A DNA stretch of 33,945 nt, taken from NCBI GenBank assembly GCA_020853405.1, contig JADYYZ010000336.1, positions 1 to 33,945 of the forward strand, in the 5' to 3' direction. Below are positions 7,228-33,945 of this stretch, piece by piece. The notes beneath the pieces are model-generated. The model did not search any database, had not been told where the DNA came from, and was given only the letters and a program-made list of their open reading frames with translations. This DNA is from Acetobacteraceae bacterium (GTDB taxonomy: Bacteria; Pseudomonadota; Alphaproteobacteria; Acetobacterales; Acetobacteraceae). The position numbers and the translations under genes are program-made. Positions within the stretch are counted from its first letter, which is position 1; each line of letters starts with the position of its first letter.

Positions 7228-7255
7228 GCCGGGGAGACTTTAGGGAGGAATTCCA

Positions 7256-10200
7256 ATGGCCACCGCCACCGCACATACGCCTGTCGCCAACGATGTCACC
7301 CGGGCGGTCGAGGGCAACCAGAAGTGGAGCACCACGACCCTCTCCTATGCCTATGCCGGGGCGGCCGACGCGGCGTTCATGACCGCCGATCTCACGGCCA
7401 AGGGACTTGCGGCCTTTCCCTACAAGGTGCTCGATGCCGGCGGCAGCACCGACGTGTTCCGAAACATGACGCAATGGGCGATGTCGCAGGCCTCGCGCGT
7501 CGCCAATATCGACTTCACCGCGGCCGCCGACTTTGCCAGCGCCGATGTCAAGATCTCAGGCATCCAAGGGCTGAGCTACACCGGCCAGGCCGACTTCCCC
7601 GGCACCAACGCCAAGGTCGGCGGCGGGGACGAGACGGTGGTCGTGCTGCTGACCCACAATGCTGACGGCACGCCCTATTTCGCGGCAGCCCTGCCCGGCG
7701 CGGCCGGGGAATCCGGCTTCTCGCGCTACATCGCGATGCACGAGTTCGGCCACGCCATTGGCCTCGGCCATCCGCACGACACCGGCAACGGCACCACCGC
7801 CATCGCCGCGGTGGCCGCGACCAGCAGCGACGACCCGCTCGACAATGACCGCTACACGGTCATGTCCTACGAGTTCGGCGGCTCCAACGCCTCGAACTTC
7901 CAGGCCTTCGGCAACGCCGCCAGCTACTCGGCGCTCGACATCAAGGCGCTGCAGGATCTCTACGGCTCGCGCGCGGCCAATACCGGCGCCAGCAGCTACG
8001 CCCTGCGCGATGCCGGCGGCGGCGGCACGCTCACCGGCGAGGCCGTGGCGATCTCGCGGTCGTTCTACACGATCTGGGACACGGCAGGGACCGACGCGAT
8101 GGTCTATGCCGGCGCCAACCGCGTGGTGCTGAACCTCAACGACGCCACGCTCGACCGCACCGACGATGCCACCACCACCGAATGGCTCGACATCCTGACC
8201 AGCACGCCGACCTACGCGGCGCTGCCCGACGAGATCAAGAAGGACCTGATGCTGCCGAGCTACCATGCCGGCGGCTTCATCTCCCGCGTGTTCGACATCT
8301 CGGGCAACGTGCAGCTCGGCGGCTATACCATCGCCAATGGCGTCACCATCGAGAATGCCGCCGGCGGCACCGGCGACGACGTGATCATCGGCAACGAGGC
8401 CGACAACTCCCTGCTCGGCGATGCCGGCAATGACATGATGATGGGTGCGGCCGGCAACGATACCATCAACGGCGATGCCGGCGACGACATCCTCGTCGGC
8501 GGCAGCGGCAACGACACGCTGAACGGCGGCGAGGGCCAGGATCTCGCCATCTTCAGCGATATTTGCGCCAACTACGACATCACCCGTGACGACAGCACCG
8601 GCGTGATCACGGTCAAGCACGTGCGTGGCTCCGGCGCCGACGGCACGGACACGCTGGCCGGCGTGGAGAAGGCGCTGTTCAAGGGCTCGACCGTCGACCT
8701 CACCGCCACTCCGCTGGGGTGCCCGCCGATCGACTTCATCTTCCTGGTCGATCTGTCCGGGTCGTACTCCGACGACCTCAGCCGCTTCCAGGCCCAGGCG
8801 CGCGAGATGGCGGCGGCGGTGCGCAGCCTGGATCCCGAGTCGCGGTTCGCGCTGGCCTCCTTCGTTGACCGGCCGGTGTCGCCCTGGGGCTCGACCGGCG
8901 ACTACCTCTACAAGCCGGAACTGGCGCTGACCGACAGCATTCCGGCCTTCGAATCGGCGCTGGGCGGGCTCACCATCTTCAGCGGCAACGACTACCCCGA
9001 GGCCCAGTTCGTCGGCCTGTGGCGCGCCGCCAATGGCTACGGCCTCAACCTGCGCCCCGATTCGCAGAAGATCATCCTGCTCGCCACCGATGCGCCGCCG
9101 CACTCGGCGTCCGATTACGGCCTCAGCGAAGCGACGATCAGTGACTTCCTTGCCAAGGAAGGCATCATCGGCATCGCCTCCAGCGCAACGGCGGATGCCA
9201 CCGCCGCGGCGCCCAGCGACACCACCGTCAGTGCCGGCGACGGCGGCCTCGCCAAATCCGATGTCGAAACCTCCGTCGGGTACGATGTGGATCCCGGCAA
9301 TCCCGATACCCGCGACGTGCTGACCCGGCTGCTCGATACGCTGATGGCCTCGCGCGGTGTCCAGCCGATCTTCGCCGTCACTTCGAGCGTGACCAGCACC
9401 TACTCCGCCTTCAACACCTCTTTCGGCCGTGGCACCACGGTGCCGATCGACAGCAGCAGCAGCGACATCGCCGACTCGCTGCGCCTTGCCCTTGCCGAAC
9501 TCTACGGCGATGTGACCGCCAGGGGTGACAATTCCGACAACATCCTGATCGGCACGCCGGACCGCGACAGGATGTACGGCCTGGGTGGCAAGGACCGCAT
9601 CGAGGGCCGCGAGGAAAACGACACCATCGACGGCGGCAACGGCGACGACCTGCTCTACGGCCAGGAGGGCGACGACCTCATCGAGGGCGGCGGCGGCAAC
9701 GACTTCATACATGGCGATCTCGGCCTGAGCGGGCCCAGCGGTGACGGCAACGACACGCTGCGCGGCGGCCTCGGCAGCGACTTCATCATCGGCGGCGGGG
9801 GCAACGATACGCTCGACGCCGGCGCCGATGGCGGGGCGGCCGACTACCTGTTCGGCGGCACCGGCAACGATACCTATATCGTCAACGGCGTGACCGACCT
9901 GGTCTACGAGGGCGACCTCATCGCGGGGTTTGAGGGTGGTGCCGGAGACTTCGACACCATCATCTCCACCGGTGAGGTCTTCCGCGACTACTACTCGGTG
10001 GGCGAGAAACTGATCATCGCCGAGGCTGCCAATGTCGATTTCCCCGATGGCACCTACATCATTGGCGGCGCGGGCATGGCGCACACCGAGATCGTGGGCA
10101 ACAGCGGCGCCAACTTCATCCTGGCCTATGGGGGCGACAACACCATCAAGTCGGGCGGTGGCGACGACTCGATCTCGCTCAGCCTCTACGACCTTGATGC

Positions 10201-10483
10201 GTCGGCCAACGGGGTGAACACCGTCGTGATGCAGGCCGGCACGGGCCGCGACTTCATCTATGATTTCGAGAGCGGCATCGACAAGGTCGACGTCTCCGCC
10301 TTCGGGCTCGACGCCGCCGGCCTGTTCGGCACCGGCGTCGATGTGGCCGCGGCGGGCGGCAACGCGGCCTACTGCTACTTCTACCTGGGAGAGACCAGCG
10401 GCACCTTCAACTACGTCGCCTTCGTCGATCGCAGCACCTCGCAGATCGCGGCGAACGACTTCATCTACACCTCCGCGGCCTGA
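7256..10483 (+). CDS. Serralysin-type (M10B) zinc metalloprotease / RTX calcium-binding protein with an inserted integrin-beta-like VWA domain; probable type I secretion substrate
   Basis: This is ORF 7256..10483, preceded by GGGAGGAATTCCA-ATG.
- The metzincin signature HEFGHAIGLGHPHD is at aa 162-175 (nt 7739-7780).
- The Met-turn is YTVMSY (aa 200-205).
- The sequence is colinear with serralysin blocks: LSYAY, ANIDF, ALDIKALQDLYG, FYTIWDTAGTD and GVTIENAAGGTGDDVIIGN.
- There are two blocks of GGxGxD nonapeptide repeats.
- The C-terminal GRDFIYDFESGIDKVDVSAFG matches the serralysin/T1SS C-terminal motif.
- There is no N-terminal signal peptide. Confidence 0.95.
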   Translation: MATATAHTPVANDVTRAVEGNQKWSTTTLSYAYAGAADAAFMTADLTAKGLAAFPYKVLDAGGSTDVFRNMTQWAMSQASRVANIDFTAAADFASADVKISGIQGLSYTGQADFPGTNAKVGGGDETVVVLLTHNADGTPYFAAALPGAAGESGFSRYIAMHEFGHAIGLGHPHDTGNGTTAIAAVAATSSDDPLDNDRYTVMSYEFGGSNASNFQAFGNAASYSALDIKALQDLYGSRAANTGASSYALRDAGGGGTLTGEAVAISRSFYTIWDTAGTDAMVYAGANRVVLNLNDATLDRTDDATTTEWLDILTSTPTYAALPDEIKKDLMLPSYHAGGFISRVFDISGNVQLGGYTIANGVTIENAAGGTGDDVIIGNEADNSLLGDAGNDMMMGAAGNDTINGDAGDDILVGGSGNDTLNGGEGQDLAIFSDICANYDITRDDSTGVITVKHVRGSGADGTDTLAGVEKALFKGSTVDLTATPLGCPPIDFIFLVDLSGSYSDDLSRFQAQAREMAAAVRSLDPESRFALASFVDRPVSPWGSTGDYLYKPELALTDSIPAFESALGGLTIFSGNDYPEAQFVGLWRAANGYGLNLRPDSQKIILLATDAPPHSASDYGLSEATISDFLAKEGIIGIASSATADATAAAPSDTTVSAGDGGLAKSDVETSVGYDVDPGNPDTRDVLTRLLDTLMASRGVQPIFAVTSSVTSTYSAFNTSFGRGTTVPIDSSSSDIADSLRLALAELYGDVTARGDNSDNILIGTPDRDRMYGLGGKDRIEGREENDTIDGGNGDDLLYGQEGDDLIEGGGGNDFIHGDLGLSGPSGDGNDTLRGGLGSDFIIGGGGNDTLDAGADGGAADYLFGGTGNDTYIVNGVTDLVYEGDLIAGFEGGAGDFDTIISTGEVFRDYYSVGEKLIIAEAANVDFPDGTYIIGGAGMAHTEIVGNSGANFILAYGGDNTIKSGGGDDSISLSLYDLDASANGVNTVVMQAGTGRDFIYDFESGIDKVDVSAFGLDAAGLFGTGVDVAAAGGNAAYCYFYLGETSGTFNYVAFVDRSTSQIAANDFIYTSAA
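8363..8545 (+). repeat. RTX nonapeptide (GGxGxDxUx) repeat block 1, a coding repeat inside the protease gene
   Basis: The block covers aa 370-430: GGTGDDVIIGNEADNSLLGDAGNDMMMGAAGNDTINGDAGDDILVGGSGNDTLNGGEGQD. Confidence 0.85.
8723..9505 (+). other. Integrin beta I-like / VWA domain, a domain inside the RTX protease
   Basis: The domain covers about aa 490-750.
- PIDFIFLVDLSGSYSDDL contains the MIDAS motif DxSxS at nt 8750-8764.
- The other blocks are FALASFVDRPVSPW, NDYPEAQF, KIILLATDAPPH, QPIFAVTSSV and GRGTTVPIDSSSS.
- All blocks occur in the same order as the integrin beta I-domain blocks I recall: DLSYSMKDDL, FGAFVDKPVSPY, DAPEGGFDA, LLVFTTDA, LIFAVT and PGTTVG..DSSN. Confidence 0.75.
9524..9880 (+). 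repeat. RTX nonapeptide repeat block 2, a coding repeat inside the protease gene
   Basis: The block covers aa 757-875: ...YGLGGKDRIEGREENDTIDGGNGDDLLYGQEGDDLIEGGGGNDFIHGD...GNDTLRGGLGSDFIIGGGGNDTLDAG...LFGGTGNDTYIV. Confidence 0.85.
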
Positions 10484-12294: not shown

Positions 12295-13551
12295 TTACAT
12301 CGGCACCAGCCTGCGGGCCACGCGGGCCCCGTCGGCGAGGCCTGGTGGTGGGTAGAGCACCACCTCGGTGCCCTCGGCGGCGCCGCCGGTCACCTCGGCC
12401 AGGGTGCCGTTGTTGCGGCCGATTCCGACCTTGCGCGCCTGGGCCCGGCCATCCACCACGGCGAAGATCGCCCATCCGTCGCCGAGGCGGAACAGGGCGT
12501 TCGACGGCACGGTCAGGGCCGCCGCCGCCTCCCAGACGATGATCTGCACTTCGACACGAAATCCGTGGCCGAGGCTGGGCGGCACGGCGGCGGGGTCGGT
12601 GAACGCGATGATCACGCGGACCCGCTGCTCCTCCACGCCCAGCGCCGAGGTCTTGGTGAAGGCCCACGGCTCGATGCGCGCGACCATGCCGCGCAGGGTC
12701 TCGGTGCCGCCCCATTTGCGGATCATCACGCCATCGCCGGGCGCGACCTGAACCGCATCGGTGGACAGCAATTCCGCGACAACCTCAAGGTCGTTCGATG
12801 TGTCGCCGATCTCCAGGATCGGCGTGCCCGCCGTCACGGTGGTGGCGCTCTCCTGCAACAGCCGCAGGATCCGGCCGGAGACCGGCGCGGTCAGCGGGAT
12901 GGTGGCCTCGTCCTCCCCCCCGAGGGTCGGCGCGCCTGATCGCGCTTGCGGGTCGGCGGCGGCGAAGGAGATCAGCTGCGCGCGCTGGTTGGCCAGGTCG
13001 GCCTCGCGCATGGCGACGGTGGCGCGGGCCGCGTCGAGTGCCGCCGTGGCGCCGCGGGCCGCGCGCTCGGCCTCGTCGAACGAGGCCTCCGAGGCGACGC
13101 CGCGGCGGGCGAGCACACGCTTGCGCTGCAACTCGCCATCGGTGAAATCCTTCTCGGCGATCGCTTGCCGCAATGCGGCGCGGGCGGCGGCCACCGCGGC
13201 CTCGGCGGCGGTGATGGCGGCGCGTGCCTGCTCGCGGCTGCGCTGGTCCAGGGCCGGCGGATTGACCGGCAGCATGCGCGCCACCACCGTCCGTCCGCCC
13301 TCCACCGCGTCTCCCGGCCGGGCCGCGACGCGCAGCAGCCTTCCGTCGATCGGGGCGGAGACGACATAGGTGTTGCGCACCCGCGTGCGGGCCTCCTCGT
13401 CGATCGTCACCCGCATGTCGGCGCGCGCGACCCGGCCGATATCGACGGCCAGCGCGCGCGGCCAGAACGATGCGGCCAGCCCGCCGCCCACCAGCAGCGC
13501 CACCAGCGAAATGAGCCAGGTTCGCGAGCGCAGACGCGGCATGCGGTTCAC
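12295..13551 (-). CDS. HlyD/MacA-type periplasmic adaptor (membrane fusion protein)
   Basis: This is ORF 12295..13551. It has an N-terminal TM segment (WLISLVALLVGGGLAA), then a lipoyl-like block (VSAPIDGRLLRVAARPGDAVEGG), a long Ala/Arg coiled coil, a second lipoyl half (LTAPVSGRIL) and a beta-barrel tail. GTG 13549-13551 overlaps the permease stop as GTGA. ATG 13542 is an alternative start. Confidence 0.9.
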   Translation of the reverse strand: MNRMPRLRSRTWLISLVALLVGGGLAASFWPRALAVDIGRVARADMRVTIDEEARTRVRNTYVVSAPIDGRLLRVAARPGDAVEGGRTVVARMLPVNPPALDQRSREQARAAITAAEAAVAAARAALRQAIAEKDFTDGELQRKRVLARRGVASEASFDEAERAARGATAALDAARATVAMREADLANQRAQLISFAAADPQARSGAPTLGGEDEATIPLTAPVSGRILRLLQESATTVTAGTPILEIGDTSNDLEVVAELLSTDAVQVAPGDGVMIRKWGGTETLRGMVARIEPWAFTKTSALGVEEQRVRVIIAFTDPAAVPPSLGHGFRVEVQIIVWEAAAALTVPSNALFRLGDGWAIFAVVDGRAQARKVGIGRNNGTLAEVTGGAAEGTEVVLYPPPGLADGARVARRLVPM

Positions 13552-15911
13552 TCCCGGACCTTGAGGGCGGTGACAAGGTCGATCCGATCGACATCGCGCT
13601 TGACCAGCCAGCCCGACGCGAGCGCGGCAACCAGCACCGCGATGGCGGCAAGGCCGTATGCCTCCGGGGTGAAACTGGCCGGCACCTGGTAGAGGTCGGT
13701 GGAGAAGCCGCGAGCAATCGCGCCGGCCAGCGCATAGCCCAGCATGGCGCCAACCGGCAGGGCCAGCAGGGTGATCACCGCCAGCTCGCCCAGCAGCACG
13801 AACGCCGCCTCACCCCTGGTGAACCCGATCACCCGCAGGCTGGCCAGGTCGCGCGCGCGTTCGGCGAAGGCGATGCGGGCACTGTTGTAGACGATGCCGA
13901 AGGTGATGACCGCCGCCATCGCACCCATGACGTACCGAATCGCACCGGCGCCGGTATCCATCAGCCGCTTCAGCGCGTCGCGCGCATCCAGCCGCAGGCT
14001 GACCCCGGCGAGCATCGGCATCCCGCGCAACGCGCGGTACAGGCCGGCGCTGGCGGCGCTGTCGATGCGCAGATGCACGCCCGACACCCGGTTCGGCTCG
14101 CGCATCGCCCGGTTGAGCGCGCCGATCTCGAAATAGGCCGGCGCGCCAAGCAGCGTCTCGGCCACCGCGACCACCGGCACGTGCAACTCGGGGCGCCGTC
14201 CCTCCCGCACCGCCACGGTCAGCACGTCGCCGGGGCCTATCCGCAGGATGTCGGCCAGTGGCCGGGACAGGATGATCCCGTCCGCGCGCAGGCGGATCGG
14301 CTGCGCATCGGCGCCGACCGCGCGGTTCAGCTCCGGCTCGGCGACCAGGCCCTGGAGCGTGCCGCGATAGGTCTGGCGGCCGTGGCGCAGCAAGGCCGGC
14401 ACGGCGCGGAACGGCTCGGCCGCGATCACCCCGGGCAGCCGCCGCAGCCGGTAGGCCGCGGCGTCGCCCAGCGGTTCGATGAACGTCACGGTGACGTCGC
14501 TGCGATCGATCACGCCGAAGCTGAGCTCGATCACCCGGTCGAACGCGCTCATCACCGTCAGCATCGCCACCGCCAGCGCCATGCCGGCGGCGATGCCCAG
14601 CACGGCGGCGCCGGCGCGCATGGGCTGGCGGATCAGCCGGCGCGCCACCATGCGGCTCGGCTGGTCGAGCAGGCGGGTCAGCGCGGCGCCGAGCCTGGCC
14701 GATCGGCTGTAGTCGGCCGGCGCGGGCGGGCGCATGGCCGTTGCCGGCGTCAGCGCGAAGACCTGGCGCAGCACGATCATGCCGCCGGCCGAGGCCGCCA
14801 GGATGCTGGTGGCGATGCCGATGGCGAAGGCGGCCGGGTTGATGCGGAACACCAGGAAGGGGAACTTGAAGTAGTCCAGATAGAGTTCCGCCATGCTGCG
14901 CCCGCCCAGCACCCCCAGCAGGCAGCCCAGCAGCGCGCCGCCGGTGGCGATCGCCAGGGTGAACTGGGCGTAGTGGGTGGCGATCTCCAACCCGGAATAG
15001 CCGAACGCCTTCATCAGCCCGATCTGCTCGCGCTCCGACTGGATCATGCGCGAGATGACGATGTAGAGCAGGAAAGCCGCCACCGCGAGGAACAGCGGCG
15101 GCACGCTGGTGGCGGAGGCGCGCAGCCCGGCGATCTCTTCCGTGACAAAGCGGTTCGACGCCTGGTCCGTCAGCCCATAGGCGCCCAGCCCGCCATAGGC
15201 GTCCAGCAGCCGGTCCACCCGATCCAGCACCGCCGGCAGGCGGGCGTCGTGCGCCAGGGCCAGCAGCGCCTCGTTGAACGCGCCTTTCAGGTCGAACGCG
15301 GCGGCAAGCGCCTCCTGGTTCATCCACAGCACGGCGAACCGCGCGTCGTCGGGCGCCATCGCGCCGGGCGCCACGGCATAGAGCACCTCCGGCGCCTCGG
15401 CGAGGCCGACGACGCTCAGCGTGCGGCGCGCCCCGTTCACGGTTGCCGCCAGCCGCGCTCCCGGCCGCAGCCCGTGCGCCCGCGCAAAGCCGCGCAGCAG
15501 CAGCACCTCGTCGTCGCGCGTCGGGTCGAGCCGCCGCCCGTCGGTCAGGTGGATGTCATTGAGCCGCGGCGCGCGGCCGGCGGGCAACGAGAAGGCGCGG
15601 GCGGTGACCGGCAGGTCCACGCCGGGCAGGTCGATCAGGGCACCGCCATTGATCCGGCCCTCCACCGCGGCCACGCCGGGGATGGCGGCGATGTCGCGCA
15701 GCACGTGCCGCGGCGCCCGCTTCGCCGGGGCGAACACCTCGGCCAGGCGGTAACGCTCGTAATAGGCGCGCCGGGTCTCTTCCAGCGAATTGACCAGCCC
15801 GTCCATCATCACCAGCAACTGGACGCCAAGCGCGATCACCAGGGCGATCGCCGCCGCCTGGCCCTTCATCCGCCGCAGATCGCGCAGCAGCTTGCGGCCC
15901 AGCGGGCTCAT
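13548..15911 (-). CDS. ABC transporter permease with two FtsX/MacB-type domains (YbbP-like, 787 aa)
   Basis: This is ORF 13548..15911. MSPLGRKLLRDLRRMKGQAAAIALVIALGV is the typical FtsX-family N-terminus. There are two periplasmic domains, each followed by a 3-TM FtsX block (…FGYSGLEI… and …IGFTRGEA…). Confidence 0.9.
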   Translation of the reverse strand: MSPLGRKLLRDLRRMKGQAAAIALVIALGVQLLVMMDGLVNSLEETRRAYYERYRLAEVFAPAKRAPRHVLRDIAAIPGVAAVEGRINGGALIDLPGVDLPVTARAFSLPAGRAPRLNDIHLTDGRRLDPTRDDEVLLLRGFARAHGLRPGARLAATVNGARRTLSVVGLAEAPEVLYAVAPGAMAPDDARFAVLWMNQEALAAAFDLKGAFNEALLALAHDARLPAVLDRVDRLLDAYGGLGAYGLTDQASNRFVTEEIAGLRASATSVPPLFLAVAAFLLYIVISRMIQSEREQIGLMKAFGYSGLEIATHYAQFTLAIATGGALLGCLLGVLGGRSMAELYLDYFKFPFLVFRINPAAFAIGIATSILAASAGGMIVLRQVFALTPATAMRPPAPADYSRSARLGAALTRLLDQPSRMVARRLIRQPMRAGAAVLGIAAGMALAVAMLTVMSAFDRVIELSFGVIDRSDVTVTFIEPLGDAAAYRLRRLPGVIAAEPFRAVPALLRHGRQTYRGTLQGLVAEPELNRAVGADAQPIRLRADGIILSRPLADILRIGPGDVLTVAVREGRRPELHVPVVAVAETLLGAPAYFEIGALNRAMREPNRVSGVHLRIDSAASAGLYRALRGMPMLAGVSLRLDARDALKRLMDTGAGAIRYVMGAMAAVITFGIVYNSARIAFAERARDLASLRVIGFTRGEAAFVLLGELAVITLLALPVGAMLGYALAGAIARGFSTDLYQVPASFTPEAYGLAAIAVLVAALASGWLVKRDVDRIDLVTALKVRE

Positions 15912-15930
15912 CGCCCGCCTTGCGTTCGCG

Positions 15931-16659
15931 TCACCAGTCGATCTCCTCGGCGCGTTTCCTGGCCGGATTGACCGTCACCTCGCGGATCGCGCCGTCGGCG
16001 AAGCTGATGACGCGGTCAGCCATCGCCGCGGTGGCGGCGGCATGGGTGATGATCAGCACGGTTGCGCCGGTCCGGGTGTTCACGTCCTGCAACACCTTCA
16101 GCACCGCCCGCCCGGTGGTGCTGTCCAGCGCGCCGGTCGGCTCGTCGCAGAACAGGACGGTCGGCTGCTTGGCGATGGCGCGCGCGATCGCCACGCGCTG
16201 CTGCTCGCCGCCGGAAAGCTGGGCCGGGAAGTGGTCGACGCGGGCGTGCAGCCCGACCAGGGCGAGGGCCTCGGCGGGCTGCAACGGGTTGCTCGCGATC
16301 TCGGTCACCAGCTCCACATTCTCATAGGCGGTGAGGCTGGGCATCAGGTTGTAGAACTGGAACACGAAGCCGACATGCTGACGCCGGTACAGCGTCAGCT
16401 CGCGGTCGTTCATGGCGGTCAGCTCGGCATCGAAGAAATGCGCCGTGCCGGCGGTGGCGCGATCCAGCCCGCCGAGGATGTTGAGCAGGGTGGACTTGCC
16501 GCTGCCCGATGCGCCGAGCAGCACCATCAGCTCGCCCGCCGGCAGGTCCAGGTCAACACCGCGCAGCGCATGCACCGCGGCACTGCCGGCGCCGTATACC
16601 TTGGTGATGCCGCGGGTGCGAAAGGCGGTTCCGGTGGCGCCGGGCCGCGGCGGGAGCAT
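15931..16659 (-). CDS. ABC transporter ATP-binding protein (MacB/LolD/YbbA type)
   Basis: This is the lower part of ORF 15931..16932. It has Walker A (GASGSGKST), a Q-loop, the signature [14 protein letters not shown], Walker B ([12 protein letters not shown]) and an H-loop (ITHA). I set the start at ATG 16657-16659 ([23 protein letters not shown]), only 4 nt after the phaC stop. The longer ORF extension would overlap phaC. Confidence 0.92.
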
Positions 16660-16663
16660 GGTG

Positions 16664-18514
16664 TCAGTTCTGCATGACATAGCGGCCCGGCGCATTGTCC
16701 AGCGGCGGCAGGCCGTCCTGCGGTGCCCCCATCGTCGGCACCGCCCCCGGCGGGCCGGAGCGGGCGGCGAGCCAATCCACCCAAGCCGGCCACCATGATC
16801 CCTCCACCGGTGGCGTCGTCTCCAGCCAGGTGTCCGCGTCCAGGTCCGCGTCCGCCGGCGCCAGCGTACGCACCCGGTGGCGCCGGCGGGCATGGCCGGG
16901 TTCAGAGACAATCCCGCCATTGTGCCCGCCATTGGTCAGCACGAACGTGACCTCGGTATCGGTCAGGCGGCGGATCTTGAAGGCGGACCGCCACGGCGCG
17001 ATGTGGTCGAACTCGGTGCCCACCGCGAAGATCGGCGCGCGGATATCGGTGAGTGCCACCGGCCGGCCGTCGACACGGTAGCGGCCTTGCGCCAGGTCGT
17101 TGTCGAGGAACAGGCGGCGCAGGTACTCGGAATGCATGCGGTACGGCATGCGGGTGGGGTCGGCGTTCCAGGCCAGCATATCGGTCATCGGGCCGCGATC
17201 ACCGGCCAGGTACTCGTGGATCATGCGCGACCAGATCAGATCGTTGGAGCGCAGCATCTGGAAGCTGCCCGCCATCTGCCGCGCATCGAGGAAGCCCCGC
17301 CGCCACATCATGTCCTCCAGGAAGGTCAGCTGGCTCTCGCTGATGAACAGCGTCAGCTCGCCGGCTTCCTCGAAATCGGTCTGCGCCGCCAGCAGGCTGA
17401 GCGAACCCAGCCGGGTATCGCCGTCGCGTGCCATGGCGGCGGCGGCGATCGACAGCAGCGTGCCGCCGAGGCAATAGCCCACGCCATGGACCGGCTGCCC
17501 CGGGACGATATGCCCGATCGCGTCCAGCGCCGCCATCACGCCGAGCGTGCGGTAGTCGTCCATGCCGACATCGCGCGCCTCGGCACCGGGATTGCGCCAG
17601 GAGACCATGAATACGGTGAAGCCCTGGGCCACCAGGAAGCGCACCAGCGAATTGCCCGGCGACAGGTCGAGGATGTAGTATTTCATGATCCAGGCCGGCA
17701 CGATCAGGATCGGCTCCGGGTGGACCGCATCGCCTGCCGGGGCATACTGGATCAGTTCGATGAGCGCGTTGCGATAAACCACCTTGCCCGGGGTGACCGC
17801 CAGCTCGCGGCCGACGGCGAACGCCTCGATTCCGGCCGGGCCCTTGCCGGTGACCATCCGGGCGGCATCCTCGAGCAGATGCTGAAAGCCGCGCACCAGG
17901 TTCATCCCGCCTTCAGCAGCCGTGCGGCGCAGCAGTTCCGGATTGGTGGGCAGGAAGTTCGACGGCGCGAAGACGTCGAGCATCTGCCGGGCCGCAAACG
18001 ACGCCACCTCCTCGTGCCGCTGCGTTACGCCGCGCACGCCGGTGGTGGCGTTGTGCCACCATTGCTGCTGCAACAGGAAGCCCTGGTACATGACGTTGAA
18101 CGGAAACTGCTGCCAGGCGGGGTCGTCGAACCGGCGATCCTGCGGCAGCGGCGTGATGCACGGCTCCGCACTGCCGCCGGACATGCAGGCAAGCACGAAT
18201 TTCGCCATCCGCGCCGACTTGCGCGCGCCCTTGACCGCAAGATGCGTGCGCTTGCCGGGCGAGCTGGCCAGATGGACCGCCCAGTCCCAGTACACTTCCA
18301 TCAGCGCCGCAGGCGCCAGCCCGCCGGTGATGCGCGCGAGTGCCGCGTTCAGTGACCGGTCGAAATCCGCGACGACTTCACCATCCGCGCGAACCACCGG
18401 CAGGGCGCTGGACGCGCGGTCGCGGGAGCGGCCACGCGGTGGTGGCGTGGTGCTGGCCGTCGGAACCGTTTCGAGAGCCGTCGTCTTCTGCATGGCGGTC
18501 ATGGTCGCGTGCAT
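16664..18514 (-). CDS. phaC: Class I poly(3-hydroxyalkanoate) synthase
   Basis: This is ORF 16664..18514. The PhaC N-domain block is [28 protein letters not shown]. The lipase box is GYCLGG with the catalytic Cys, followed by a conserved His block ([13 protein letters not shown]). Its length of about 612-616 aa fits class I. AGGAG abuts ATG 18514 with no spacer, so the in-frame ATG at 18502 (12-nt spacing) may be the true start. Confidence 0.92.
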
Positions 18515-18725
18515 CTCCTGCTTTCGACGGGCGACGTTCGCGGGCGTGGTGGCTGGCTCCCCGCCAACGGCTCGTCATGATCGATCCGGCGCGGCGCGTT
18601 GCCGCCAGCGAGTTCGGCGCGGCGGGTCCAGCGCATATTGGCATGATACACGCCGTCACCAAAACTTTCAATTCTGACAAAACGAACTATATCTCCGCAT
18701 TGGATAGCGATGGGAGTTCGACGGG

Positions 18726-19724
18726 ATGAGCAGGCGCGGATGGTTGATCGCGCTGGCCCTGGCTGCCACCGCCACGGCAGGTGGCGGCTGGTGGTGGCAG
18801 CAGCTTCAGTCGCGGTTGCCGGCGGGAATTGCCTCCGGCAACGGCCGATTGGAGGCCGAGCAGGTGGATGTGGCCACCCGATTTGCCGGCCGCATGGTTG
18901 AAATCCTGGTCGGCGAAGGCGCGCTGGTCGCCGAGGATCAGGTGGTGGCGCGGATGGACACCGGCGAAATCGAAGCCCAACTCCGCCAGGCGGAGGCGGA
19001 GGTGCGCCGCAATCGCGAGGCCGTGGCCGAGGCCCAGGCGCAGACCGCCCAGCGCCAGGCGGAGCTTGAGCTGGTCGGCCGGAATCTCTATCGCACCCTC
19101 CAGCTTGCCGCCGAAGGCCATGTCTCGCACCAGCGCGTGGACCAGGAGCGGATGCAGCAATTGACCGCCCAGGCCGGCGCCGAGGCCGCCTTGCGGCGCG
19201 CCGATGCGGCGCGCGAGGCGGTGGACGCCGCGGTGGCGGCCGCCGACCGGATCCGCGAACAGATGCAGCAGGCAACGCTGCGCGCGCCGCGCGCCGGGCG
19301 CGTGCAGTACCGCCTGGCACAAGCCGGCGAGGTGTTGCCGGCCGGCGGCAAGGTGCTGACGCTGCTGGATCTGACGGACGTCTCGATGGCGATCTTCCTG
19401 CCGACGGCCGAGGCCGGGCGGATCGCGATCGGTGCGCCGGCGCGCGTGCTGCTTGATGCCGTGCCAGGACTGGCGGTGCCCGCGCGGGTGTCGTTCGTCG
19501 CCGCCCAGGCCCAGTTCACCCCGCGCCAGGTCGAGACGCGCTCGGAGCGCGAGAAGCTGATGTATCGCGTGAGGGTGCAGCTGCCGCCGGCCCTGCTCCG
19601 GCGCTACGAGGCGCAGGTCAAGGTGGGCCTGACCGGCGCCGCCTATGTTCCCATCGCCCCCGGCATCGCGTGGCCGGCCGCGCTGGAGTCCGATCTGACC
19701 AGGCAGGACTGGTGGGCGCAATGA
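18726..19724 (+). CDS. HlyD-family secretion/adaptor protein (YhiI/YbhG-like)
   Basis: This is ORF 18726..19724. It has an N-terminal TM segment ([19 protein letters not shown]), the motif [31 protein letters not shown], a coiled coil, LRAPRAGRV and a C-terminal [21 protein letters not shown] block. GGGAG lies 9 nt upstream of the start. Confidence 0.9.
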
Positions 19725-24214: not shown

Positions 24215-24473
24215 GATTAAACAAACAACCATCCCTCTGGTACATGCCGCGGTATCGGGTCTTGCTGAAGCTGAAGCTGAAGCTGACCGGACTCCGGCCA
24301 ACGGCGGCCTTGATGTGCTTGCGGATGGACAACCCGATCGCGCGGCCGGCATGGTGGCCCGTTCGCGCTTCGATGGCCGCGGGCCAAGACCGATGAACCG
24401 CTGCCGTGGTGCGCGGCTCCACCGCGCAATGCCCGATCACCATCCTCAGACTCCGGCGATCGCCGGAAATCAC
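24207..24473 (-). pseudogene. Frame-shifted, 3'-truncated remnant of the C-terminal half of a uroporphyrinogen-III methyltransferase domain (the tail of the CysG-like gene)
   Basis: This is ORF 24207..24473, in a different frame from ORF 24497..25462. Several blocks align with NirE in this same window:
- SLRMVIGHCAVEP aligns with GVRFVTGHCRGDG.
- SWPAAIEARTG aligns with NWASLADPDTT.
- RAIGLS aligns with IYMGLS.
- GRSPVSFS aligns with AETPAVAI.
GC3 bias is still coding-like. The reading frame ends before the conserved ...PVLMVIGRVV block, inside the AT-rich marR promoter region. Confidence 0.4.
24264..24286. repeat. Hexanucleotide tandem repeat (GCTGAA) x3.8
   Basis: The sequence is gctgaagctgaagctgaagctga. 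On the minus strand it encodes SFSFSFS within the methyltransferase remnant. Confidence 0.9.
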
Positions 24474-24496: not shown

Positions 24497-25462
24497 TCAT
24501 TGCCCGACGCCAAGCCTGGACAAGCCCTGGATGCGCTCAAGATCGTTGGCTCGTTCCATGCCAGTGGCGAGGCCTGGTACGAAGGCGGCCGGAATCCCCT
24601 GCCGCCGCACCTCCGGCGCCTCTCGCGCCCACACCGCTGCGCCATCGCCGGCACAGAGCCGGATGACCTTGCGACCGTCCTGTGCCTCGCGCAGCGCGGC
24701 CGCGAGGCAATCAGCCGGCTCGGCAAGGCAGAGCAGGGGCGCGTCGCGCCGGGCGAGCGCGAGGACGCCAGATGGGATATCGGGCGCATGCACCACCACG
24801 TCGGCCTCGCCCAGAAGGCGCTGCGCGCGCATCGTGACCAGATCCGCATCGCCAGGGCCCGCGGCCACGAAATGAACGGCGCCGCCGCCGTCAGCCCCGG
24901 CGGCGATCTCGGCCTCGATGATTGCGGCCGCTTCCGCCTCCTCGCCGGCGAAGACGCGCTCGGCCGCCGGCCCGGTGAAGATGCGTTCCAGCACCCGCCG
25001 GCGCAGCCTGGTGTCCGGCAGCGACTGGCGCAGCCGGCCGTTGAATGTCGCAACCAGCGCGGCAAGGCGGCCGAACAGCGGCGGGACGGCGGCTTCGATG
25101 CGCGCGCGCAGCAGGCGGGCCAGCAGCGGTGCCGCGCCACCGGTGCCGACGGCGATGGTCACGGGATCGCGGTCGATGATGGCCGGCATCAGGCAGGTGC
25201 ACAACGCGGGGTGGTCAACGACGTTGACCGGGATATTGCGCGCCCTGGCGGCGGCGGCCAGCGCGGCCAGTTCCGCCTCCTCGGCATCGGCGCCGATCGC
25301 CAGGGCACATCCGTCCAGCAAGGCAGGGTCGAAGCGCGTGGCGTGGACGATTCTGGCGCCGGCTGCGGCGATCGGCGCCGCCTTGCGCCGGGCCACCTCG
25401 CCATCGCCCAGAACCAGGACCGTTCGGCCCTGCAGGATGAGAAAGACCGGCAAGGTCCGCAT
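24497..25462 (-). CDS. cysG: CysG-like siroheme synthase: an intact precorrin-2 dehydrogenase/sirohydrochlorin ferrochelatase half plus a degenerate, interrupted methyltransferase half
   Basis: This is ORF 24497..25462.
- The N-terminal half matches E. coli CysG blocks as I recall them: LPVFLILQGRTVLVLGDGEVARRKA and NVVDHPALCTCLMPAIIDRDPVTIAVGTGGAAPLLARLLRARIE.
- The methyltransferase domain begins at VHFVAAGPGDADLVT.
- That domain has AGDG where GGDP is expected.
- It also lacks about 10 aa before that block.
- It stops 23 codons after VPGL. Confidence 0.8.
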   Translation of the reverse strand: MRTLPVFLILQGRTVLVLGDGEVARRKAAPIAAAGARIVHATRFDPALLDGCALAIGADAEEAELAALAAAARARNIPVNVVDHPALCTCLMPAIIDRDPVTIAVGTGGAAPLLARLLRARIEAAVPPLFGRLAALVATFNGRLRQSLPDTRLRRRVLERIFTGPAAERVFAGEEAEAAAIIEAEIAAGADGGGAVHFVAAGPGDADLVTMRAQRLLGEADVVVHAPDIPSGVLALARRDAPLLCLAEPADCLAAALREAQDGRKVIRLCAGDGAAVWAREAPEVRRQGIPAAFVPGLATGMERANDLERIQGLSRLGVGQ

Positions 25463-28849: not shown

Positions 28850-30616
<1,767 letters not shown>

Positions 30617-30630
30617 GGTGCCGTGGGCTT

Positions 30631-30657: not shown

Positions 30658-30703
30658 GGATCCGCGCACTGGGGAGGATGCGGTGGCGGGCGGGACAGCG
30701 GCG

Positions 30704-31522
30704 ATGACAGACAGCGCGATGGGCCAGGTGTTTCTGGTCGGCACCGGGCCGGGTGATCCCGACCTTCTGACCGTCAAGGCATACCGGCTGCTGCGCGAGG
30801 CGGATGTCGTGGTGCATGACCGGCTGGTGTCCCCCGGCGTGATGGCGCTGGTTCCGCCCGGTGTTCACCGTGTCTCCGCCGGCAAGGAAGCGGGGCGCCA
30901 CCAGATGGCGCAAGAAGACATCAATGCCCTGCTGCTGCACCTCGCGCGGGCGGGCAAGCGGGTGGTGCGGCTGAAGGGCGGAGATCCGTTCATCTTCGGC
31001 CGCGGCAGCGAGGAGGCGGCATATCTCGTGGCGCATGGCGTCGCGGTGGAGGTGGTGCCGGGCATCACCTCGGCCTCGGGCTGCACGGCCGAGCTTGGCA
31101 TTCCGCTCACCCATCGCGGCGTTGCCAGCGGCGTGCGGTTCGTCACCGGGCACTGCCGTGGCGACGGGCCGCTCGACCTCAACTGGGCGAGCCTGGCCGA
31201 CCCGGACACCACGCTGGTGATCTACATGGGGCTGTCGAACGCCGCGGAAATCGCCGCGAACCTGATCCGCCATGGGCTGCCGGCGGAAACCCCGGCGGTT
31301 GCGATCGCCAACGGTACCACGGCGGCACGCCGTGACTGCCGCGGCCCGTTGCGCGATATCGCCGCGCGCATCGCCATGGCCGGGTTGCAGTCGCCGGTCC
31401 TGATGGTGATCGGTCGGGTTGTCGCCCTGGCGGGCGTGCCGGAAGGCGCGATCCCGGCGAGTATCCCTGGCGGTGGGTGGGAAAATGCGTTGGTTGCGAA
31501 TGCGCTGGCGGCGGGCGGCTGA
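30704..31522 (+). CDS. nirE: Uroporphyrinogen-III C-methyltransferase (SUMT) for heme d1 synthesis
   Basis: This is the inner part of ORF 30623..31522. Blocks present are VFLVGTGPGDPDLLT, VVHDRLV, VVRLKGGDPFIFGRGSEE, VVPGITSA, GIPLTHRG, VTGH, VIYMG and VLMVIGRVV. The start is uncertain. Candidates are ATG 30704 (used here), GTG 30683 (5 nt after GGAGG) and ATG 30719. Confidence 0.9.
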   Translation: MTDSAMGQVFLVGTGPGDPDLLTVKAYRLLREADVVVHDRLVSPGVMALVPPGVHRVSAGKEAGRHQMAQEDINALLLHLARAGKRVVRLKGGDPFIFGRGSEEAAYLVAHGVAVEVVPGITSASGCTAELGIPLTHRGVASGVRFVTGHCRGDGPLDLNWASLADPDTTLVIYMGLSNAAEIAANLIRHGLPAETPAVAIANGTTAARRDCRGPLRDIAARIAMAGLQSPVLMVIGRVVALAGVPEGAIPASIPGGGWENALVANALAAGG

Positions 31523-31841: not shown

Positions 31842-33045
31842 TCGCGGATCGACCGTTTCGCGCCGCCGGCTGCTCGGCACCGGCGCGAAAGCCACGGTGC
31901 TGGGGCTGGCCCTGCTGGGCGTGGCCGCGGCGCCGCCGCGCGGCACCGGCGACCTGGCGCTGGTGGTCGAACGCGCGAGCGGCACGGTGCAGATCGTCGA
32001 CACCACGGCGCGGCAGGTGGTGTCGCGGGTGGCCGGGCTCGGCGACCTGTCGCACGCCACCGCGGTATTTTCCCGCGACGCGCGCCACGCCTTCGTCTTT
32101 GGCCGCGACGGCGGGCTCAGCAAGATCGACCTGCTGGCCGGCGAGGTGGTGGCGCGGGTGGTGCAGGCGGGCAATTCCATCGGCGGTGCCATCTCTGACG
32201 ACGGCACCATCGTCGCGGTCGGCAACTACGCCCCGGGCGGCGTCAAGCTGTTCGCCACCGGCTCGCTGGCGCCGCTGGCCGATATCCCGGCGCTGACCGC
32301 CGGCGGGGCGATGCGGTCCAAGGTGGTCGGCCTGGTCTCGGCCCCCGGCCGCCGCTTCGTCGTCGCACTGTACGATGCCGGCGAGATCTGGCTGATCGAC
32401 TGTGCCGACCCGGCCGCGCCGCTTGTGCGCAAGTATCCCGGCATCGGCCGGCTGCCATACGATGGCAACATCACCTCCGACGGCCGCTTCTACATCGCCG
32501 GGCTGTTCGGCGAGGACGGGCTGGCCTTGCTCGACCTGTGGAATCCCGATGCCGGGGTGCGCCGCATCCTTGACGGCTACGGCCGCGGGGAGGAGCCGCT
32601 GCCGGTCTACAAGATGCCCCATCTGGCCGGCTGGGGCCGCGCCGGCGGCTTGCTGCTGGTGCCCGCGGTGGGCCGGCATGAGGTGCTGGTGATCGACACG
32701 GCGCAGTGGCGCGAGGTCAAGCGGATCCCGGTGCGGGGCCAGCCGGTGTTCATCGTCGTGCGGCCCGACGGGCGGCAGGCCTGGGTCAACTTCGCGCTGC
32801 CCGACAGCGGCACGGTGCAGGTGATCGACATGCTCACGCTGGCGCCGATGCGCGACCTGCAGCCGGGCAAGGCGGTGCTGCACATGGAGTTCTCCCCGCG
32901 CGGCGAGCAGATGTGGGTGTCGGCGCGCGACTCCGGCAAGGTGGTCGTTTACGACAGCCGAACCTTCGCGATCCTCGCCGAATTGCCGTCGCAAAGCCCG
33001 AGCGGCATCTTCATGGCCGCGCGCGCCCATACGATGGGCCGCTAG
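31819..33045 (+). CDS. nirF: NirF, a cd1-like beta-propeller protein of heme d1 biosynthesis
   Basis: This is ORF 31819..33045. It resembles the NirS d1 domain (LALVVERASGTVQIVD, HATAVFSRDARHAFVFGRDG, LFATGSL, EIWLID, PHLAGWG, GRHEVLVID, LHMEFSPRGE, VVVYD). The N-terminus has a twin-arginine-like signal (STVSRRRLLGTGAKATVLGLALLGVAAA). It overlaps nirC by 23 nt. Confidence 0.9.
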   Translation: MSVMSSSDRGSTVSRRRLLGTGAKATVLGLALLGVAAAPPRGTGDLALVVERASGTVQIVDTTARQVVSRVAGLGDLSHATAVFSRDARHAFVFGRDGGLSKIDLLAGEVVARVVQAGNSIGGAISDDGTIVAVGNYAPGGVKLFATGSLAPLADIPALTAGGAMRSKVVGLVSAPGRRFVVALYDAGEIWLIDCADPAAPLVRKYPGIGRLPYDGNITSDGRFYIAGLFGEDGLALLDLWNPDAGVRRILDGYGRGEEPLPVYKMPHLAGWGRAGGLLLVPAVGRHEVLVIDTAQWREVKRIPVRGQPVFIVVRPDGRQAWVNFALPDSGTVQVIDMLTLAPMRDLQPGKAVLHMEFSPRGEQMWVSARDSGKVVVYDSRTFAILAELPSQSPSGIFMAARAHTMGR

Positions 33046-33048
33046 GGC

Positions 33049-33534
33049 ATGGACATGGTGCCGCCGCCGGCCGACGAACCCGGCACCGACGCGCTGGACC
33101 GGGCGTTGCTCGACCGGTTCCAAAGGGGATTCCCGCTTCAGTCGCGCCCCTTCGCGGTGCTGGGGGACTGCCTGGGCATATCGGAGGCCGAGGTGATTGC
33201 CCGGCTGACGCGGCTGCGCGCGGCCGGGATGGTGGGCCGGGTGGGCGCGGTGATCGCGCCGCGTCGTGCCGGGGCCAGCACGCTGGCGGCGATGTGCGTG
33301 CCGGAAGCGCGGCTGGATGAGGTCGCCGCCATCGTCAGCCGCCATCCGGCGGTGAACCACAACTATTCCCGCGAGCACGCCTTCAACCTGTGGTTCGTGG
33401 TGACCGCCACCGATGCCGCCGCAGTGCAGGCGGCGCTGGACGACATCGGCCGCGAGTCCGGGATCGTGCCGCTCGACCTGCCGCTGGTCGAGGCGTTCCA
33501 CATCGACCTGGGGTTCCCGCTGCGATGGAACTGA
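33049..33534 (+). CDS. nirD: Siroheme decarboxylase subunit (AsnC/Lrp-like NirD family)
   Basis: This is ORF 33049..33534. The N-terminal wHTH is LDRALLDRFQRGFPLQSRPFAVLGDCLGISEAEVIARLTRLRAAGMVGRVGAVI. It is followed by HPAVNHNYSREHAFNLWFVVTA, the NirD/AhbA signature. Confidence 0.85.
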   Translation: MDMVPPPADEPGTDALDRALLDRFQRGFPLQSRPFAVLGDCLGISEAEVIARLTRLRAAGMVGRVGAVIAPRRAGASTLAAMCVPEARLDEVAAIVSRHPAVNHNYSREHAFNLWFVVTATDAAAVQAALDDIGRESGIVPLDLPLVEAFHIDLGFPLRWN

Positions 33535-33945
33535 CCGCCGATGACCACCGGCTGCTGGAACTCGTCGGCGCCGGGCTGCCCTTGGTGGCGGAGCCGTACC
33601 GCGCGGTGGCGGCGGCGCTGGGGCAGGGGGAAGACGCCGTGCGAACGCGGCTTGCCGCCCTGATCGAGGCCGGAGTGATCGCGCGCTTCGGCGTGGTGGT
33701 GCGCCACCGCGCGCTGGGATACGTCGCCAACGCAATGGTGGTGTGGGACATCGCGGACAACCTGGTGGCAGGTGTGGCGGCGAGGCTGGCCGGCGAGCCC
33801 GGCGTGACCCTGTGTTAGCGCCGGCCGCGCCGGCCGCCGCTCTGGCCGTACAACCTGTTCTGCATGATCCATGGCCATGACCGCGGCCGGGTGCTGGCGC
33901 AGATCGAGGACATGGCGGCACGGCTGGCGCTCGGCGACGTGCCCC
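33525..33945 (+). pseudogene. Second siroheme decarboxylase subunit gene (NirL/NirG/NirH family) interrupted by an in-frame TAG at 33816-33818; the 3' end runs off the window
   Basis: ATG 33525 overlaps nirD by 10 nt and opens MELTADDHRLLELVGAGLPLVAEPYRAVAAALGQGEDAVRTRLAALIEAGVIARFGVVV...GEPGVTLC. A TAG follows. The same frame then continues without further stops to the window end as [42 protein letters not shown]. This is the conserved continuation (C-Y-xRP...WPYNLFxMxHG). The TAG sits exactly where NirD in this window has the Tyr of NHNY. Confidence 0.75.

Follow-up and report, generated by a model that had tools for sequence, protein, structure and literature searches.

How a TAG triplet came to stand inside nirL, within a nirS operon, is the question raised by the window, by which we mean the whole stretch of DNA that was analysed (33,945 nt, an entire NCBI contig). 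The triplet lies at 33816–33818, in frame with the ATG at 33525 (local codons GGC GTG ACC CTG TGT TAG CGC CGG CCG), and beyond it the nirL frame runs on without a further stop through 42 codons, as far as the window extends. A sequence-only reading had described the TAG as in frame and followed by at least 42 further codons of family sequence, which was confirmed in every detail, and had offered three explanations for it: a recent nonsense mutation, a sequencing or assembly error, or a codon that is read through. The features concerned are collected in Table 1.

Table 1. Features of the nir genes in the window, with coordinates on the window.
Feature	Coordinates	Strand	Basis or remark
nirS, cytochrome cd1 nitrite reductase, 579 aa, intact	28877..30616	+	ORF; no disruptive differences from other populations
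nirE, uroporphyrinogen-III C-methyltransferase, 279 aa as called on contig L002, intact	30683..31522	+	NCBIfam TIGR01469/NF004790; gene call on L002 moved by offset
nirC, small c-type cytochrome, 102 aa	31533..31841	+	Pfam Cytochrome_CBB3 on the L002 gene call; weak cytochrome c550/c551 matches
nirF, Cytochrom_D1 beta-propeller, 405 aa	31828..33045	+	ends in TAG at 33043-33045
nirD, AhbA-like siroheme decarboxylase subunit, 159 aa, VNHNYSR motif intact	33055..33534	+	NF040708, 113.7 bits
nirL before the stop	33525..33815	+	NCBI annotation: 97-aa protein (P0121)
In-frame TAG in place of Tyr98	33816..33818	+	third base G private to the window contig; T or C elsewhere
nirL codons 99-140, including the essential Arg100	33819..33945	+	127 bases identical to the first 127 of JADLHF010000136.1; shared de Bruijn junction k-mer
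Perfect GC-only hairpin, GCCGGC-CGC-GCCGGC	33820..33834	.	inside an all-G/C run (33819-33841), directly after the TAG

By family score, domain architecture and operon context, the gene is an ordinary nirL, encoding the AhbB-type subunit of the siroheme decarboxylase NirDLGH, and the proposal that a nirL-type siroheme decarboxylase gene follows nirD was thus borne out. When a tyrosine is placed at the stop, the resulting 140 residues score 149.7 bits against NCBIfam NF040707 (siroheme decarboxylase subunit beta, AhbB), the curated equivalog cutoff of which is 125 bits, and the match is one stretch, residues 10–136, that crosses the TAG. Precomputed Pfam matches place a NirdL-like HTH domain (PF22451) and an AsnC_trans_reg2 domain (PF17805) on a 99%-identical full-length protein (P0001) and on all homologues listed. 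The gene sits between nirD and nirG in the nirS operon, with nirS-E-C-F-D-L in the window and nirG-H-J-N on contig L002 and on a neighbouring contig, and its start overlaps the nirD stop codon (33532–33534) in a 10-nt overlap of the typical coupled kind. The exact 159-aa NirD protein is present on nine other contigs. The gene resembles known NirL/AhbB proteins (NF040707; chain B of 4CZD and 4UN1; the L-half of NirDL in 4CH7 and 4CZC) in its family score, both domains, the motif arginine and its position between nirD and nirG, but the window contig has a TAG where these have the codon of the motif tyrosine. NirD, NirL, NirG and NirH decarboxylate siroheme to didecarboxysiroheme (12,18-didecarboxysiroheme) en route to heme d1 (PMC7242693, PMC12505453), and from its family and these reports nirL of the window is predicted to take part in the same step. 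The host is an uncultured alphaproteobacterium, common in wastewater systems, with a standard nirS-E-C-F-D-L-G-H-J-N operon. The organism is markedly clonal, with ∼99.9% identity among metagenomes of activated sludge, wastewater, bioreactors, biofilm, soil and wetland from more than ten studies (2020–2025); in the species-representative genome collection, the best NirS match, from an Alphaproteobacteria MAG of Lac Pavin, reaches no more than 84% identity, and an exact look-up of NirS gave no record.

The residue replaced is one that the family keeps. The TAG had been said to align with the conserved motif tyrosine, and alignment of orthologues agrees: tyrosine occupies the TAG column in all 25 aligned homologues (55–99% identity, 158–183 aa), none of which ends there, as well as in the aligned PDB chains (AhbB, 4CZD and 4UN1 chain B; NirDL, 4CH7 and 4CZC). 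Its context in homologues is V-T-L-C-Y-R-R-P-R-R-P-P. In AhbB, Palmer et al. (2014, PMC4145669) describe the conserved HXYXR motif (His98, Tyr100, Arg102) as facing the active-site cavity between the subunits, suggest that Tyr100 may donate a proton, and report no activity for the R102A mutant. The TAG replaces Tyr98 of NirL, the equivalent of AhbB Tyr100, and Arg100, past the stop, is the equivalent of AhbB Arg102. The conspecific motif, L-C-Y-R-R, keeps the tyrosine and the arginine; in contrast to AhbB, its first position is leucine rather than histidine, as it is in all close alphaproteobacterial relatives.

A different view of the same stop would be that family members usually terminate at this point and that the similarity beyond it is that of a second, independently started gene. 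The NCBI annotation, which has a 97-aa protein in the window and a 68-aa partial protein (P0122, ...QAATA, a cluster mate of the 97-aa protein) as the first gene of the neighbouring contig, is what speaks for it, but this split is the mechanical result of the stop codon and the contig break. A protein search (5.8 billion proteins) gave 2,022 hits, and the 120 listed are all 158–183 aa long; the NCBIfam and PDB matches cross the site as single, unbroken stretches; and near-identical contigs encode nirL as one 166-aa protein. We thus consider the chance of a separate downstream gene to be next to nil.

The TAG is also confined to a single contig. The ten near-identical contigs that were fetched (99.3–100% identity to the window; JGI 3300009540, NCBI metagenome GCA_020054605.1, ENA ERZ27275381 and seven Logan assemblies) read TGT TAT in five cases and TGC TAC in the other five, and never TAG. 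Eleven runs, drawn from at least eight studies and overlapping as a set with the ten contigs, supplied contigs that differ from the window at 33818 wherever they cover it, and always by T or C: the change is G>T in seven runs (X1, X3, X7, X9, X12, X17 and others) and G>C in three (X4, X6 and X27), each of the latter with a synonymous T>C at 33815. Among ∼15 billion catalogued proteins, the truncated 97-aa product was found from one contig only. An exact pattern scan with N at the variable base matched only the TAC contig L001 in metagenome_contigs and gave no match in genome_contigs. The 31-mers spanning the TAG occur in no indexed run, which is weak evidence: no run shares more than 0.98 of the adjacent 10 kb, so the source run itself is probably not indexed. 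Over the 33,945 bases of the window, the G at 33818 is the sole allele shared with no sampled population, the window's allele at every other variable site being shared with at least one. Taken on these comparisons, the TAG appears to be a single T-to-G transversion (TAT to TAG) confined to one metagenome-assembled contig.

Variation elsewhere in the species gives this singleton its scale. Conspecific populations differ from the window by about 10–16 SNPs per 20 kb, and other samples carry about 1–7 private SNPs each over the stretches examined (20–34 kb), so that one private SNP in the window is unremarkable. Relative to other populations, the window has no indels or frameshifts except one shared 6-nt polymorphism. 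Within nirL, polymorphism across the species is limited to third codon positions, with five synonymous changes and one Glu/Asp change, and purifying selection thus acts on nirL in the species. From sample to sample the haplotypes look like mosaics; that of the window is X17-like over 1–14 kb and unlike X17 over 14–20 kb.

An in-frame stop in a conserved gene could also be one that the cell reads through, whether by near-cognate pairing of tRNA-Tyr or tRNA-Gln or with a suppressor tRNA, so that some full-length NirL is made. Weak termination contexts in bacteria include TAG followed by C, which is the base that follows the stop here, and insertion of tyrosine would restore the wild-type protein. 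However, the stop is conserved in no relative or other population, with in-frame stops at the tyrosine position in 0 of 25 homologues, 0 of 10 near-identical contigs and 0 of 11 runs. TAG moreover serves as an ordinary terminator in this organism: it ends nirF (33043–33045, 770 nt upstream of 33816) and a methyltransferase gene (413–1333) in the window, and nirH, nirJ and a UbiA-family gene on the neighbouring contig. A search with ARAGORN over 44 kb, the window plus 10 kb of the neighbouring contig, detected no tRNA genes, and neither pyrrolysine machinery nor a suppressor tRNA was seen in the same DNA. Nothing beyond background leakiness is suggested, and we regard production of full-length NirL by read-through as very unlikely. 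The stronger proposition, that the G is real and fixed in the strain and that the UAG is decoded often enough for heme d1 synthesis to continue, whether near-cognate tRNAs place Tyr or Gln there in the weak TAG-C context or a suppressor tRNA outside the DNA examined does so, seems more improbable still; if it were true, a natural denitrifier would supply a catalytic tyrosine by stop-codon read-through. Known cases of amber suppression or stop-codon reassignment (suppressor tRNAs, pyrrolysine) resemble the window only in having an in-frame UAG in a conserved gene; unlike in those cases, its stop is not conserved, other genes of the operon end in TAG, and the DNA examined shows neither a suppressor tRNA nor pyrrolysine machinery. 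Of the three explanations first offered, then, the recent nonsense mutation and the sequencing or assembly error stay open, and read-through or suppression is unsupported.

The position of the TAG in the assembly bears on both of the explanations that stay open. The last 127 bases of the window are the first 127 of NCBI contig JADLHF010000136.1 (assembly GCA_020848935.1), and 127 is the longest exact suffix/prefix overlap of the two. The second contig begins at the equivalent of window position 33819, one base past the G, and continues with the remainder of nirL, which equals wild type, followed by nirG (147 aa), nirH (162 aa), nirJ (398 aa, radical SAM), nirN (494 aa) and a gene for a Crp/Fnr-type regulator, the last five being called as complete genes. 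In a de Bruijn assembly at k = 127, two contigs that meet at a junction vertex have exactly 127 bases in common. From this overlap and the shared NCBI origin, we infer that the window and JADLHF010000136.1 come from one assembly. Because the junction vertex starts at 33819, the edges entering it must differ at 33818, and the overlap thus implies that the source reads disagreed at that base. Such disagreement is consistent with the T/C polymorphism of the species at 33818, and the breaks of Logan contigs of other strain-mixed samples at 33814 and 33871 are consistent with it as well.

Two further observations concern assembly in this region. Word depth in other metagenomes rises 10- to 70-fold over 33842–33876 in nirL and over parts of nirS (29295–30624); denitrifiers of higher abundance share the high-depth k-mers of these two genes, and breaks in Logan contigs fall in the same stretches, as at 33871. 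In general, short-read assembly of metagenomes is fragile in this high-depth region. An exact repeat of 33819–33883 (65 nt) ∼946 nt downstream was also considered and rejected, as the fetched contig holds no exact second copy and has at that place a similar, non-identical motif region of nirH.

The G at 33818 may therefore be a base-call or assembly artefact, or a minority allele taken from a branch of the graph, in which case the real nirL would read TAT or TAC and be intact; we put the likelihood of this a little short of even. The start of the continuing contig at 33819, together with exactly 127 shared bases, means that the assembly graph branched at 33818, and contigs of other strain-mixed samples are broken nearby. 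All other populations have T or C at the site, and the absence of TAG words from the indexed runs points, weakly, in the same direction. The window haplotype is mosaic, as is expected of a consensus from mixed strains. The GC-only hairpin and several GGC motifs directly flank 33818, and GC hairpins and GGC motifs are reported triggers of sequence-specific Illumina errors; their relevance to an error at this base would be by analogy. On the other hand, de Bruijn assemblers require that several reads support a path and as a rule retain the deeper one, which ought to keep a sporadic error out of a 34-kb contig; a mixture of T and C cannot give a G; no other sign of error was found over the 34 kb of the contig; and the contig break is already accounted for by the T/C polymorphism, so that the G need not be wrong.

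The alternative, which we favor with confidence resting at the midpoint of the scale, is that the TAG is a real, very young, strain-private nonsense allele, causing loss of function in one strain of a mixed population. General assembly sloppiness is absent over the 34 kb, and because de Bruijn assemblers drop low-count paths, several reads probably backed a G that made it into the contig. We lean toward the view that the G was carried by real reads in the source sample and that it is biological rather than technical. Against a real allele, it is suspicious that a contig of 34 kb should have just one private allele and that this one should put a stop codon at a catalytic residue, and the G precedes the contig-terminal 127-mer, in strain-mixed data, at a T/C polymorphic site and beside an all-GC hairpin, the kinds of places in which errors concentrate. 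Compared with strain-level nonsense polymorphisms or young pseudogenes in other MAGs, the window is alike in having a single-base lesion in a conserved gene with an intact frame and intact neighbors that is absent from conspecifics; it differs in that the lesion adjoins the contig-terminal k-mer and is inseparable from an artefact. Taken at face value, translation would stop after residue 97 of NirL, and a strain that relied on this NirL would presumably be left without heme d1 and, as a consequence, without NirS activity.

A lesion in nirL might have been one of several in a pathway already being lost, and the sequence-only reading had suggested that the intact nir genes would be on their way to decay. 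No second lesion was found in the heme d1 genes, nirS, nirE, nirC, nirF and nirD being intact in the window and nirG, nirH, nirJ and nirN being called complete on the neighbouring contig, so the several independent lesions of a decaying (pseudogenised) heme d1 pathway are not present and the suggestion of decay was not upheld. With these genes whole and nirL under purifying selection, the lesion, as judged from the DNA, looks young.

Elsewhere in the window, a CysG-like siroheme synthase gene (24497–25462, minus strand) lies next to ApbE (nirX-like) and NosR/NirI-like genes and encodes the NAD-binding, central and dimerisation domains with only the N-terminal half of TP_methylase (profile positions 2–117 of 212). 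A frameshift or assembly error was considered for this gene and set aside, as three-frame translation gave no continuation and the sequence is identical in other populations; the half domain is a shared natural truncation, and nirE presumably supplies the methyltransferase activity in its place. Between the CysG-like gene and a MarR-like regulator gene, apparently in intergenic DNA, three populations (X17, X4 and X12) have a 6-nt insertion polymorphism, GCTGAA, at 24263. Run X9 has an in-frame 183-nt deletion (19398–19580) with 6-nt microhomology near the 3′ end of an HlyD-family gene (18708–19724), where that gene overlaps a fused ABC transporter gene. The gene at 7244–10483 (plus strand) encodes 1,079 aa that include RTX calcium-binding repeats and an integrin-beta-like VWA domain, and a nearby set of HlyD, MacB/FtsX permease and ABC ATPase genes at 12295–16935 (minus strand) may serve to secrete this protein. 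A class I PhaC polyhydroxyalkanoate synthase gene at 16664–18574 (minus strand) fits a storage-polymer lifestyle in activated sludge.

We thus view the lesion either as a commonplace nonsense substitution of one base or as a mistake of assembly where the contig ends, and not as a new way of reading the genetic code, as in the DNA examined it shows none of the marks of programmed read-through, codon reassignment or a decaying operon. Either outcome leaves what is known of the genetic code and of heme d1 biosynthesis unchanged. If the G is an artefact, the locus calls for caution in annotation, because the 97-aa "complete" NirL and the 68-aa fragment at NCBI would then both stem from one doubtful base, 33818, and the contig break at that junction. 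Should the allele be genuine, heme d1 synthesis, and hence NirS activity, would just have been lost from one strain of a widespread wastewater alphaproteobacterium; the locus would then illustrate on a small scale that strains vary in denitrification capacity, which bears on how nitrite reduction is read from the gene content of MAGs.
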